A DNA stretch of 64,000 nucleotides. It comes from Candidatus Jordarchaeales archaeon (GTDB lineage Archaea > Asgardarchaeota > Jordiarchaeia > Jordiarchaeales > Freyrarchaeaceae). How positions within the stretch are numbered: the stretch's first letter is position 1; the number at the start of each line of letters is the position of its first letter. Of the stretch, positions 19,285-38,770 are shown in pieces. Where the stretch lies: positions 9,192-73,191 of the forward strand of contig JAWCFL010000005.1 in assembly GCA_038858525.1 (NCBI GenBank), given 5' to 3'. The position numbers and the translations under genes are program-made. The notes beneath the pieces were generated by a model. The model did not search any database, had not been told where the DNA came from, and saw only the letters and a program-made list of their open reading frames with translations.

Positions 19285-19643
19285 GGGTGGTGGGTCTAGG
19301 CGGGCGGCTAGGGGTCGCCTGACGGGGAAGCTCCTGCTTCCCTTGACCGCAAATCCCCTATATGGCGGGCCGAAAGCCGGCGTGAGGCGTCTTCAACTCG
19401 CCACACATCCTTCACGCTAAGGCAATGAAAACTCGTCCCAGAGGGCTGGCGGTGGCCGTCCGCCCTCCGTAGGGAGGGTGTGTTCGGCCTTTACTAGGGA
19501 AAACCGGCTAGGCCCGGGAGAGCCGTCATGGCCTCGATGGAGCAACCTAACCCTAGACGTGTGGCGCTTCTGGGGGTGCGGGTTCGAGACCAAACGTGAA
19601 GGCCGTGGCGAGGGGTGGCGTCGATCGCCGGGACTCACCACCC
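19285..19643 (+). ncRNA. ~360-nt GC-rich structured RNA, most likely signal recognition particle (7S) RNA; RNase P RNA is the alternative
   Basis: Perfect terminal helix 5'-GGGUGGUG...CACCACCC-3'. Internal hairpins such as GGGAAGC-UCCU-GCUUCCC. SRP helix-8-like 'GGAGCAACC'. An upstream TATA and a downstream T-rich tract. No credible ORF. Confidence 0.5.
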
Positions 19644-23136: not shown

Positions 23137-23237
23137 GAAGATCAGGTTGTCATGAGCTCTTCATCGTTTCCTCAGACTGGGACGGCGCCATCATCTCCAA
23201 AACTAAATATGCAGATAGCGATTTATAATTATCGTCT

Positions 23238-23591
23238 CTAGCGGTCAACTTGTATCTTAAGTTTTTCAACGGTTTCTCTCGCTTTCTTAATGCTTCCCGT
23301 AACTTTTTTTATGTCGGTCAAGATCGGCGTGCCCCTTATCTCTGAAATCATGCTTACTCCCGCATGGACTATATCGACGGTTTTATGCGTGCAGCGCAGT
23401 ATGCCGAAGCCCGACCGCTTATCGTAATCAATGACTTTCAAGTTCATGAAACTAACTCCAACTTCACCGAAAAGTTTGAGGAGCACGCTCCATAAGTCTC
23501 GAGCCACATCCTCGTATTCAAGCTCTTTATCGCTCATAATTTGGAAGACGATGTACCGCCATCTACCCTCAATCGATCTTACTCGACCCAA
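23238..23591 (-). CDS. rnp2: RNase P protein component 2 (Pop5)
   Basis: 117 aa. 'RWRYIVFQI...GILRCTHK' matches the Pop5 pattern. Adjacent to the Rpp30-like gene. Confidence 0.7.
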   Translation of the reverse strand: MGRVRSIEGRWRYIVFQIMSDKELEYEDVARDLWSVLLKLFGEVGVSFMNLKVIDYDKRSGFGILRCTHKTVDIVHAGVSMISEIRGTPILTDIKKVTGSIKKARETVEKLKIQVDR

Positions 23592-23611: not shown

Positions 23612-24277
23612 TTACTCTTTTCTAAATCCCTCGTATCCTTTCCATTCCAGTATAGTTAAAGGATAGAAAGAAACCGCTCTGATCGCAGCCTCTCTAGGGA
23701 TCCCGAGGAGGCGCGCCACAGCAATGAGGCTTCCAGGAGAACGTAGCTCATACTCCATCTTCGGCTCTCTAGTTATGAAAAACACTGCTCCCTCCTCTAA
23801 CAGTACTGTGGCGGCCTTTCTGAGCGTTGAGAACGCTTGTGCGCGCTTTACCCCCTCGCACTCAAAGAGGGGAACCAGTGAGATCTCAACAGCGGTTCTT
23901 CCTTCATAGGAAAGCCTGACAAGCGACTTATCTAAGTACCTGTAATGCTCGATGGACGGAAAATAAATTATATCCACATCTGGATTTCGAGCGGCCCACG
24001 TAGCCACCTCCCTGTTTAAGCAAGGGACCGCCACTAGCTCTGCCTTCTCTCTTACTTCACCTAACATTTTCTTCATCTGGGCTAAGTTTTCCCCCTTAAG
24101 ATTTATTCTTGAGAAAACTTCAATCCCGTTAATTTTTCCTTCCCAACTTGTTATAAAAAGAACATTAAACCCTAATTTACTTGCGAACTCAAAAAAACGT
24201 TGTTGGGAAAATGCTGATCCGAGATGCACGTGTGTTTCAACAAATTTCAGTCTACGATTAAGTTGTGCCTCCTGCAT
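23612..24277 (-). CDS. rnp3: RNase P protein component 3 (Rpp30, PHP/TIM-barrel fold)
   Basis: 221 aa. 'VETHVHLG' metal motif. Conserved neighbourhood with Pop5 and L15e. Confidence 0.65.
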   Translation of the reverse strand: MQEAQLNRRLKFVETHVHLGSAFSQQRFFEFASKLGFNVLFITSWEGKINGIEVFSRINLKGENLAQMKKMLGEVREKAELVAVPCLNREVATWAARNPDVDIIYFPSIEHYRYLDKSLVRLSYEGRTAVEISLVPLFECEGVKRAQAFSTLRKAATVLLEEGAVFFITREPKMEYELRSPGSLIAVARLLGIPREAAIRAVSFYPLTILEWKGYEGFRKE

Positions 24278-35598: not shown

Positions 35599-35670
35599 AG
35601 CACACACGAAGCCAACCGAGAAAACCAAACTCTCCAGCAAAACAATCACTCAACAAACAAGAACAAATAG

Positions 35671-35755
35671 CGGCCCCGAGGGGATTCGAACCCCCGACAC
35701 CCGGCTTAGGAGGCCGGTACCCTCTCAGAACACATCCTGGCTGGGTTACGGGGCC
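35671..35755 (-). tRNA. tRNA-Arg(CCU) with a ~10-nt insertion in the D-arm (non-canonical intron)
   Basis: Reverse complement GGCCCCG-UA-...-CCGGC-CUCCUAA-GCCGG-GUGUC-GGGGG-UUCGAAU-CCCCU-CGGGGCC-G. Perfect 7-bp acceptor and anticodon CCU. The D region is ~10 nt too long. Confidence 0.75.
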
Positions 35756-35855: not shown

Positions 35856-35952
35856 GCGGGCGTAGTCCAGCCTGGTCTAAGACGTCGGCCTGCCACGCCG
35901 AGGACCCGGGCGGCTAACACAAAGCCAGGGACTTCAAATCCCGGCGCCCGCA
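35856..35952 (+). tRNA. tRNA-Gly(GCC) with a 22-nt intron at the T-stem/T-loop junction (53/54)
   Basis: Acceptor GCGGGCG/CGCCCGC. Anticodon arm UCGGC-CUGCCAC-GCCGA. T-stem CCGGG (35906-35910) and CCCGG (35940-35944) with the UUCAAAU loop at 35933-35939. The 22 nt at 35911-35932 are intervening. Confidence 0.75.
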
Positions 35953-37560: not shown

Positions 37561-37831
37561 AAAGCTCTCTTCCCCTCTTTTTCTTTTCCATGTTGTTTCC
37601 GTTTTCGGAAGCATCCCGAATTCTCGGTTGGCAGGATCGAAAATGGCTGTCCTTCCTCATATCGTAACAACCAATTTTTTGTCTTAAATCTGTCCAGAAG
37701 GGGATGCTAAGTCAAACCTTAATATCCCTTGTAATCCTATTAATTGCTAACTCCACTTTCCCTTAGACCTCTTTTTTCATGCTTTCACAGGCATACCTTA
37801 ATTCAATTTGGTATCAGGGAATAAAAGAAAG

Positions 37832-37840
37832 AAATATATA
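37832..37840 (+). promoter_or_regulatory. TATA box (AAATATATA) about 28 nt upstream of tRNA-Trp
   Basis: Spacing consistent with an archaeal promoter for the tRNA-Trp precursor. Confidence 0.4.
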
Positions 37841-37867
37841 ACGTAGCAGTGAAAGATTTCCCTTGAT

Positions 37868-38066
37868 GGGGGCGTAGCGCAGCTAGAACGGCTTATAAAA
37901 AGTGGTAAAGTAGCGCGGCTGGCTCCAGAAGCAATGAGAACAAACTGGTGCGCTGACCGGAGATGATGACCTTCTGGAGCTCCGAGCTGGAGAGGAGTAC
38001 CCCCAGAAGCACCAGTTGGTCGTGGGTTCACCCTTTACAGGGGGCCTTAAAGTCCCACCGCCCCCA
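37868..38066 (+). tRNA. tRNA-Trp(CCA) with three introns: a D-loop intron, a canonical 37/38 intron (82 nt) carrying box C/D sRNA-like elements, and a T-loop intron (20 nt)
   Basis: Acceptor GGGGGCG (37868-74) / CGCCCCC (38059-65). D-stems GCGC (37877-80 and 37913-16). Anticodon stem GCUGG (37918-22) / CCAGU (38012-16) with loop CUCCAG|A. Variable UGGUC. T-stem GUGGG (38022-26) / CCCAC (38054-58). The intron has D' CUGA (37953-56) and C' GAUGAUGA (37962-69). Its guides pair so that the nucleotides opposite the 5th position upstream of D/D' are C34 and C39. Confidence 0.65.
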
Positions 38067-38083
38067 TCAAGTTCACTATTTTT

Positions 38084-38770
38084 CTACTTTAATTCGCGAT
38101 ACTTAGGCTTCGCTCTGCCCGGAAGCTTTTCCCTAATCATTACGATTTTCTCCGGCTCAAATACTCCACACATGAACTCCGTAATCTGTTGTTCCTTTCT
38201 TTTTGCTTCATGTATGTTGGGGTAGATCCTTCCTGCAGCTTCTTCATCTTCGTTGCTTAGCGTGCATGCGATGACCGCCCTGTCGAACTCGTCGAGCTGG
38301 GTGATGTTTCTCTCAAATGTCTCAGCAGCTCTCCATGACAAATGAATCATACGGATCCAGTTAAGCCAGCGAGTGTAAAAGTGTGCCTCCTCTGTTTCAG
38401 GAGTTCCTTTTGGGTTGCGGAACTCGCACTCATTCCACCATGGTATCTTCGCGTTAAGCCTTATTGCATGGTCATAAAGTCCCGTATTTATCAACTCGTC
38501 AACTAGCCGCCCGAAAACTAGGAGGTATGCTCCCGCCCTTTCATTGCCTCCTTCGTCGAAAAGCCTCTTACCCATGGAGACCATTTCCTCATCTATTTCT
38601 CTCGCAAGTCTCTCCGCAGCTTCAACTATCCTCCTGAACTTTTCCTCTTCACCTATGTCTCCCATTCTGAGTTTTTCAAGGCTTAAAGACCTAACTAATT
38701 CAACTGCTTCATCAGACAAAAGCAGTTTGAGAATTCTTTCGAAGTTCTCGTCGAACCTATCTCTCCTCAT
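38084..38770 (-). CDS. hypothetical all-alpha protein
   Basis: 228 aa, acidic and helical. No confident family. Sits in an AT-rich region next to tRNA-Trp. Confidence 0.45.
   Translation of the reverse strand: MRRDRFDENFERILKLLLSDEAVELVRSLSLEKLRMGDIGEEEKFRRIVEAAERLAREIDEEMVSMGKRLFDEGGNERAGAYLLVFGRLVDELINTGLYDHAIRLNAKIPWWNECEFRNPKGTPETEEAHFYTRWLNWIRMIHLSWRAAETFERNITQLDEFDRAVIACTLSNEDEEAAGRIYPNIHEAKRKEQQITEFMCGVFEPEKIVMIREKLPGRAKPKYRELK

Follow-up and report, generated by a model that had tools for sequence, protein, structure and literature searches.

The window, by which we mean the whole 64,000-nucleotide (nt) stretch analysed here, comes from the genome of a Candidatus Jordarchaeales archaeon, a member of an order within the Asgard archaea (GenBank assembly GCA_038858525.1, contig JAWCFL010000005.1, positions 9,192 to 73,191 of the forward strand). 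On its plus strand lies a 199-nt gene for tRNA-Trp(CCA) whose four exons are separated by inserts in the D-loop, between tRNA positions 37 and 38, and in the T-loop (Table 1). The 37/38 insert has the appearance of a double-guide box C/D RNA directed at its own pre-tRNA, and a short segment near its 3'-end looks like a mini-intron nested within that guide RNA. Taken together, the sequence comparisons described below make it likely that the locus is a functional multi-intron tRNA-Trp gene of this kind.

Cutting out the three inserts leaves a 74-nt RNA that ARAGORN calls as tRNA-Trp(cca). The spliced RNA has the stems of a complete cloverleaf, with a 7-bp acceptor (GGGGGCG/CGCCCCC, followed by A73), a 4-bp D-stem (GCGC/GCGC), a 5-bp anticodon stem within the arm GCUGG-CUCCAGA-CCAGU and a 5-bp T-stem (GUGGG/CCCAC), and it carries the anticodon CCA along with U8, A14, G18G19, A21, U33, G53, U54-U55-C56, A58, C61 and the discriminator A73. 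The unspliced locus was called neither by ARAGORN, with or without its intron option, nor by Rfam at the gathering threshold. The original prediction, made from the letters of the DNA, had rebuilt a complete tRNA-Trp(CCA) from exons around inserts in the D-loop, at 37/38 and in the T-loop; the exons hold, with the universal residues all present, and the insert sites survived testing and are backed by comparison with orthologues. Its sizes of 82 nt and 20 nt for the second and third inserts stand, and the D-loop insert, given there as about 21 nt, is 23 nt long.

The orthologues were found through the neighbouring gene and through a scan of metagenomes. A gene for a 228-aa protein lies 18 nt downstream of the tRNA gene, and homologues of this protein that are 76% and 70% identical lie on syntenic contigs carrying the same tRNA gene (L130 from JGI 3300022546, Ga0212122_1000075, also found as L131-133, L144 and L150; and L134). 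The metagenome pattern scan returned 31 loci, 7 of them false positives in coding sequence, and supplied a more distant orthologue, L151 (Ga0180301_10015559). The spliced tRNA is identical at 74 of 74 nt in the window, L130 and L134, and every insert differs in sequence and length. A purine-rich stretch and TATA-like box, AAAGAAAGAAATATATAA, lies about 27-45 nt upstream of the mature 5'-end and is presumed from its sequence to be an archaeal promoter; the block AAAGAAATATATA is kept upstream of the L130 and L151 orthologues, and a T5 run, a putative terminator, follows 13 nt past the gene. Since exons are kept while inserts have diverged, and a promoter-like block and T5 run are present, the gene appears to be under strong selection and not to be a pseudogene. 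Within the window species the locus is unchanged in eight assemblies except for one substitution in one of them: in L129 (ENA ERZ27245617 k141_46415) a G-to-T change at gene position 157 alters T-stem G51 and would break G51-C63. The seven other assemblies match the window, and the change probably stems from a faulty assembly or marks a rare variant.

To describe splice sites we used a bulge-helix-bulge (BHB) geometry in which a 4-bp helix H carries a 3-nt bulge 3' of each of its strands and the cut falls after the second bulge base, relaxed forms needing at least one flanking helix (h or h'). A naive all-versus-all scan of the 199 nt with this geometry turned up chance motifs by the dozen, which makes BHB likeness by itself weak evidence, and we relied instead on the comparison of the window with L130, L134 and L151. 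The T-loop intron has an HBh' motif in which H pairs at all four positions and h' is 5 bp long; three h' pairs covary among the orthologues (C-G to U-A, C-G to U-G and U-G to C-G), and the intron measures 20, 20, 25 and 18 nt across the four. For the D-loop intron, with lengths of 23, 19, 19 and 16 nt, H has three of its four pairs in the window and all four in L151, h is absent and h' is 2-3 bp (2 in the window). Here H changes from A-A to A-U and from U-G to C-G in L151 and from G-U to G-C in L130, and the third h' pair also covaries.

The D-loop junction was set by means of the orthologues and of archaeal tRNA-Trp genes with the D-loop AGCAAGGUA (L007 and L072) or AGCAUGGUA (L061); these three were the useful archaeal tRNA-Trp genes from a T-arm/acceptor pattern scan of genome contigs, which otherwise returned mostly cyanobacterial tRNA with the same 3'-end. 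Alternative D-loop junctions were rejected, for example one with the mature loop AGCU|GGUAAAGUA, which has 13 nt, offers no BHB and conflicts with L130 and L151. Placing introns at 38/39 or 57/58 was likewise rejected, with only one or two of the four H pairs formed. As a separate observation, the 5' splice bulge AG^A is common to the D-loop, outer and inner introns (37885-37887, 37927-37929 and 37991-37993), a pattern that transposition of introns or an endonuclease preferring this sequence could explain.

Table 1. Features of the tRNA-Trp(CCA) locus and its flanks in window coordinates; ^ marks a predicted cut.
Feature	Position	Strand	Remarks
tRNA-Trp(CCA) gene	37868-38066	+	199 nt
Exon 1	37868-37886	+	Acceptor 5' strand, U8 A9, D-stem 5' strand, D-loop A14-G18 (GGGGGCGUAGCGCAGCUAG); same in window, L130 and L134
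D-loop intron (18/19)	37887-37909	+	23 nt, at G18/G19 between the conserved D-loop guanines; relaxed BHB, bulges AG^A / AA^G
Exon 2	37910-37928	+	G19-G37; anticodon CCA 37925-37927, C34 = 37925
Intron 37/38	37929-38010	+	Genomic length 82 nt; taken to be a 66-nt box C/D intron split by a nested 16-nt intron
Kink-turn stem I 5' strand and C box	37930-37939	+	AGC (37930-37932) and AAUGAGA (37933-37939); 5' flank AAGC
D' guide and D' box	37940-37956	+	ACAAACUGGUGCG (37940-37952) and CUGA (37953-37956); G37948, fifth nt upstream of D', pairs with C39 (38012)
Spacer between D' and C'			CCGGAGA, 7 nt
C' box	37964-37969	+	UGAUGA (37962-37969 with preceding GA); unchanged in all four orthologues
D guide, D-like box and stem I 3' strand	37970-37988	+	CCUUCUGGAGCU (37970-37981), CCGA (37982-37985) and GCU (37986-37988); G37977, fifth nt upstream of the box, pairs with C34 (37925)
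Nested mini-intron (candidate)	37993-38008	+	AGGAGUACCCCCAGAA, 16 nt; strict BHB, H CUGG (37987-37990)/CCAG (38003-38006), bulges AG^A / AA^G, h' GG/CC
Exon 3	38011-38029	+	A38-C56; C39 = 38012
T-loop intron (56/57)	38030-38049	+	20 nt; HBh' motif, H GGGU/GCCU 4/4, h' 5 bp, bulges UC^A / UA^A
Exon 4	38050-38066	+	A57-A73; CCA end unencoded
Putative promoter	37823-37841	+	Purine-rich stretch and TATA-like box AAAGAAAGAAATATATAA
Putative terminator	38079-38083	+	T5 run

The 37/38 intron reads AAUGAGA, 13 nt, CUGA, 7 nt, UGAUGA, 12 nt, CCGA, which is the box order of a double-guide C/D RNA with the C and D boxes off consensus. Its D guide forms a 10-bp Watson-Crick run with G31-G37 and the intron bases AAG (GCUCCAG|AAG), spanning the 5' junction, while the D' guide forms a 9-bp Watson-Crick run with the intron bases GC and with A38-U44, spanning the 3' junction. 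The N+5 rule, by which the target nucleotide lies opposite the fifth nucleotide upstream of the box, points on the two guides to C34 and C39. In 5000 dinucleotide shuffles of the intron a 10-bp run was reached 5 times and a 9-bp run 10 times, both together never, and the full C-N-D'-N-C'-N-D layout did not arise in 20,000 shuffles. The D' guide also covaries with its target, L151 having G in place of the window's A at nucleotide 9 of the guide and C in place of its U at tRNA position 43. Both guides, together with the C' and D' boxes, hardly vary across the four orthologues while the 3' part of the intron does, as expected of a working guide. The original prediction had named the D' CUGA and C' elements, one guide placing C34 and another placing C39 across the 3' junction; all were recovered, the second duplex with the added weight of the L151 change.

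Over 37930-37987 a permissive Rfam scan returned almost nothing but archaeal C/D sRNA (small RNA) families, the top match being sR40 at 22.3 bits, a family whose consensus has the terminal boxes AUGAGGA and CCGA and a guide, ACCUUUGGAGCC, complementary to the CCA anticodon loop. Once the mini-intron is taken out, a terminal kink-turn can be read in the sequence, with an AGC/GCU stem, an AAU bulge and tandem GA/GA pairs. The AAU-GA of the C box corresponds to the kink-turn consensus of a bulge followed by sheared G.A pairs.

Evidence for the mini-intron comes from the splice motif of the intron that surrounds it. As a single piece the 82-nt intron makes a poor BHB in both the window and L130, with two of four H pairs (CUCC against AGAA) and no h'. 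Removal of the 16-nt segment joins ...GCUGGAG to GC^A, so that the outer H becomes CUCC/GGAG with all four pairs, h has 7 bp, h' is the 3-bp AGC/GCU and the intron is 66 nt long; this h' doubles as the canonical stem (stem I) of the terminal kink-turn. The mini-intron motif is also found in L130 (17 nt) and L134 (16 nt), its H is fully paired in all three orthologues that have it, and one H pair changes from U-A to C-G in L134. In L151 the intron has 67 nt, ends in ...CCGAGCGAGGAG|GC^A with all four H pairs and contains no mini-intron, leaving an empty site at exactly the predicted junctions. When the 25-nt 3' segment was shuffled, a comparable nested arrangement appeared in 8 of 20,000 cases. 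The covarying helix, the rebuilt outer motif, the empty site and the rarity among shuffles lead us to read four BHB introns in the gene, of 23 nt at 18/19, 20 nt at 56/57, 66 nt at 37/38 and 16 nt nested in the 3'-end of the last. We hold this reading, like the functional one, to be likely rather than assured, because the outer helix of L134 is intact despite its insert. The three introns of the original prediction, with the 82-nt one as the canonical intron, stand as insertion sites, and the 82 nt are probably 66 nt plus a nested 16 nt. At the proposed junctions in the window, BHB motifs are good at the T-loop, partial at the D-loop and poor for the 82 nt taken whole.

A 9-nt direct repeat, CCAGAAGCA, was also seen at 37926-37934, over the 5' junction, and at 38003-38011, where it takes in the last 6 nt of the mini-intron, the terminal GC of the outer intron and A38. 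Seven base pairs can form between this second copy and the D guide, a pairing that L134 keeps by way of G.U pairs, and the repeat suggests either a duplication origin or masking of the guide.

Several observations weigh against the locus as we read it. The D-loop motif lacks its outer helix and has an A.A mismatch in H in three of the four orthologues, and in L134, where the outer H has four pairs even before the mini-intron is removed, nesting is not an absolute need. None of the four orthologues has CUGA as its terminal D box, which reads CCGA in three of them and CGGA in L134. The C box reads AAUGAGA, or AAUGAAA in L130, the third kink-turn position is not paired consistently, and no Rfam C/D family reaches its threshold, the gathering cutoff of sR40 being 50 bits. 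Covariation counts are small and come from four orthologues. Minimum free energy folds of naked RNA favour the cis guide-target duplex over either BHB conformer, at -33.4 against -24.0 kcal/mol after removal of the inner intron, so protein-assisted conformational switching has to be assumed, as for the Haloferax precursor. Folding of the pre-tRNA had been put forward as a way of confirming the junctions, and this did not succeed: thermodynamic folds, constrained or free, fail by themselves to recover the BHB conformers. Pfam scans of 38 open reading frames of the window did not find fibrillarin, Nop5, L7Ae or EndA among them.

Some of these points are shared by the simpler reading, which we consider unlikely, that the gene has three introns only and that the 82 nt leave in one step from a relaxed motif, the CUGG...CCAG hairpin being a stabilising stem or a relic of duplication of the 5' junction. 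Asgard and TACK endonucleases do cut relaxed motifs, the outer H of L134 is complete without any removal, the 3' half of the hairpin plus GCA repeats the 5' junction CCAGAAGCA as a duplication would, and the same stretch is complementary to the D guide. However, in the window and L130 one-step removal would have to act on an H of two pairs with no h', and it leaves several coincidences: a hairpin with exact BHB geometry in three species, including a compensatory change, predicted inner cuts that rebuild both GGAG beside GC^A and the AGC/GCU stem, the absence from L151 of exactly this segment, and a chance rate of about 4 in 10,000 for such an arrangement. Two further explanations question function instead of structure. 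One takes the C/D-like boxes for a relic without function, so that pairing with the anticodon arm would serve only pre-tRNA folding or presentation of the splice sites and no methylation would be guided; this seems to us quite improbable. In its favour, the C and D boxes are degenerate, every canonical intron has to pair to some extent with the anticodon loop, complementarity without consensus boxes is retained in the tRNA-Trp introns of Sulfolobus (PMC3326292) and the H. volcanii intron is, by the title of Joardar 2008, dispensable for viability. Against it, the perfect C' and D' boxes have not changed in any of the four orthologues while neighbouring non-guide intron varies, the spacers are 12-13 nt, both N+5 positions are the two residues methylated in H. 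volcanii tRNA-Trp, and the pairing of D' guide with 3' exon covaries although a BHB does not need it. Least credible of all is a decaying or unprocessed pseudogene whose work is done by a separate intact tRNA-Trp, which would fit the silence of standard tRNA finders but not exons identical at 74 of 74 nt across species whose flanking protein is 70-76% identical, compensatory changes in the intron helices, or the conservation of promoter-like box, T-run and synteny.

For the four-intron gene with its guide RNA, we infer transcription, ribonucleoprotein (RNP) assembly, methylation, cleavage at each junction and the order of events as follows. Transcription would start from the TATA-like promoter, and endonuclease and ligase would remove the D-loop, T-loop and inner introns. 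Since the mini-intron covers the 3' strand of the outer H and part of the kink-turn stem, its excision and religation would create CUCC/GGAG and AGC/GCU, and only then would the outer intron present a canonical hBHBh' to the splicing endonuclease. Through its C/D and C'/D' motifs, the intron that remains could then be assembled with L7Ae, Nop5 and fibrillarin, the proteins that form Cm34 and Nm39 in this way in Haloferax volcanii, and direct 2'-O-methylation of C34 and C39 in pre-tRNA-Trp. Because both guide duplexes include intron bases, the unspliced pre-tRNA would be the preferred substrate. Finally, the outer BHB would be cut and the exons ligated, with the 66-nt intron probably freed as a circle, as excised archaeal tRNA introns are elsewhere (PMC3326292, PMC12558985).

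This gene combines features known from several systems. The guide in pre-tRNA-Trp of H. volcanii, also found in Pyrococcus abyssi and Halobacterium salinarum, is likewise a double-guide C/D RNA in the 37/38 intron of tRNA-Trp(CCA) that targets C34 and position 39 (PMC4090602, PMC3326292, PMC12558985), with duplexes that span the exon-intron junctions and a pre-tRNA substrate; methylation there is reported to be sequential and in trans (Singh 2004, as summarised in PMC4090602 and PMC7994747). The match to Haloferax made in the original prediction is borne out by the 37/38 site, the self-complementarity of both guides and the N+5 positions at 34 and 39. Unlike H. volcanii, however, the host is an Asgard archaeon and not a euryarchaeon, the group for which intron-borne C/D guides in tRNA-Trp are classical; the intron has 66 (+16) nt instead of 105 nt, position 39 is C instead of U, AAUGAGA and CCGA serve as terminal boxes, and besides an apparent interruption of the intron itself there are two more, non-canonical introns in the gene. 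The 66-nt value is close to the median tRNA-Trp intron length of 65 nt (PMC4090602).

BHB introns in the D- and T-loops beside one at 37/38, relaxed HBh' motifs and a background of (alpha-beta)2 endonuclease are likewise known from the multi-intron tRNAs of Thermoproteales and of Atabeyarchaeia and Freyarchaeia (PMC11291895, PMC4033280, PMC5829648), the Asgard enzyme having broad specificity (PMC5829648). Introns occur in more than 90% of the tRNA genes of Atabeyarchaeia and Freyarchaeia, and Supplementary Data 4 of PMC11291895 lists tRNA-Trp genes of Atabeyarchaeia that measure 206 and 231 nt and have 3 and 4 introns; the main-text passages and table rows of PMC11291895 matched by term searches do not mention a C/D nature of the large tRNA-Trp intron. 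The present gene differs in belonging to another Asgard class, Jordarchaeia, from hot springs. Nested archaeal tRNA introns that impose an order of splicing have been described (Sugahara 2008 and Tocchini-Valentini 2009, as cited in PMC3728597), and as in those cases the BHB of the last intron here would form only after another is removed; unlike the examples as cited there, the Jordarchaeal inner intron would lie within a guide RNA and block its terminal kink-turn stem.

The intron also shares its box order, 12-nt spacers and an anti-CUCCA guide before CCGA with Rfam RF01297 (sR40) and with stand-alone archaeal C/D sRNAs that act on tRNA-Trp C34, but its 22.3 bits against 50 make it a non-member by the Rfam criterion. 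Pyrobaculum sR26 presumably lies outside a tRNA intron, which is our assumption. It belongs to the C/D sRNA gene families of that genus and targets tRNA-Trp C34 (PMC6009581). The locus is, in sum, an elaborate example of published kinds, namely tRNA-Trp intron guides, multi-intron Asgard tRNAs and nested introns; what its sequence possibly adds is a nested intron inside a guide RNA that blocks the terminal kink-turn stem.

The metagenome scan placed the gene in a wider setting, as many uncultured lineages were found to have a tRNA-Trp intron with a C' box and guide, and several of them carry further introns in the D-loop, anticodon stem or variable region. A C/D intron accompanied by non-canonical ones, the combination singled out by the original prediction, is present in the window but is not special to it. 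In other metagenomic tRNA-Trp genes the stretch upstream of the C[UA]GA box tracks the anticodon stem, for example UACGGGUUU, which pairs with AAACCCGUA; the D' guide has ACGGG with CCCGU elsewhere and ACUGG with CCAGU here, at the same 1-nt offset and with position 39 at N+5. On AT-rich metagenome contigs, ten loci (L135, L138, L142, L145, L148, L149, L155, L156, L159 and L161) have a single-intron tRNA-Trp that combines a C' box with an anti-C34 guide and, after the guide, CGGA, and none of the ten has a detectable position-39 guide, which indicates that the two guides are not always kept together.

Two of the orthologues carry additional inserts. L130 has a further 16-nt insert in the variable loop at 46/47, CCAGUUGG^U UAAAAGGUUAAUUGG^U CG, which is present in independent JGI, ENA and Logan assemblies and brings the total to five inserts per tRNA gene; its H is AGUU/AAUU with four pairs, there is no h or h', and UUGGU direct repeats flank it. 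L151 has an extra 38 nt just past the 3' splice site, bounded by the 9-nt direct repeat GGCACCAGC, so that the 3' junction sequence occurs twice. No placement of these 38 nt gives a clean BHB, and the junction at the second copy would give a 105-nt intron with three of four H pairs.

Around the gene, the exact sequence of the 228-aa downstream protein also occurs in GCA_038819355.1, GCA_038840935.1, GCA_038868355.1 and GCA_018383855.1. The two open reading frames that overlap the tRNA-Trp locus (37798-38031 on the minus strand and 38016-38225 on the plus strand) have no gene call at the same locus in public assemblies, which agrees with the earlier view that such calls are spurious. Among the housekeeping proteins encoded in the window, of kinds usual in archaea and Asgard members, are TIP49, Urm1, Trm112, MCM, GINS, RFC and the RNase P proteins Pop5 and Rpp30.

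Other RNA genes of the window have peculiarities of their own. A tRNA-Gly(GCC) gene at 35856-35952 (+) has an insert of about 22 nt at the border of T-stem and T-loop; as a tRNA it scores 41.8 bits in Rfam, where the alignment contains a 29-nt insertion, removal of 22 nt lets ARAGORN call Gly(gcc), and its BHB has just three of four pairs. It adjoins an intronless tRNA-Leu(GAG) gene at 35670-35755 (-). A candidate stand-alone box C/D sRNA at 23142-23198 (-), reading AGAUGAUGG, 12 nt, CUGA, GGAAAC, GAUGA, ..., CUGA, lies in the intergenic gap directly downstream of the genes for Pop5 (23238-23591) and Rpp30 (23612-24277). The archaeal signal recognition particle (SRP) RNA at 19288-19640 (+; Rfam 145 bits) has expansions of 23 nt and 21 nt relative to the model at two hairpin tips, with an extra hairpin at the helix-8 tip where a GNAR tetraloop is expected; a BHB was looked for in this expanded tip and none was found.

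These observations bear both on annotation and on the biology of tRNA maturation in these archaea. Because the unspliced gene is missed by standard tRNA finders, a metagenome-assembled genome containing it would seem to lack tRNA-Trp, and spurious open reading frames could be called in its place. The recurrence of introns with C' box and guide suggests that the tRNA-Trp intron guide is widespread among uncultured archaea. A more tentative idea, to which we assign a low probability, is that the mini-intron acts as a built-in timing switch that couples guide maturation, formation of Cm34 and Cm39, and splicing in a fixed order. If so, the mini-intron would hide the 3' strands of both the outer splice helix and the kink-turn stem, and could also pair with the D guide, so that the endonuclease would have to cut the guide RNA once before full C/D RNP assembly and tRNA splicing could take place, and a BHB intron would lie within a functional guide RNA. 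The apparent intron-within-intron offers a concrete substrate on which ordered BHB splicing, and the way it interacts with assembly of the C/D RNP, can be studied.

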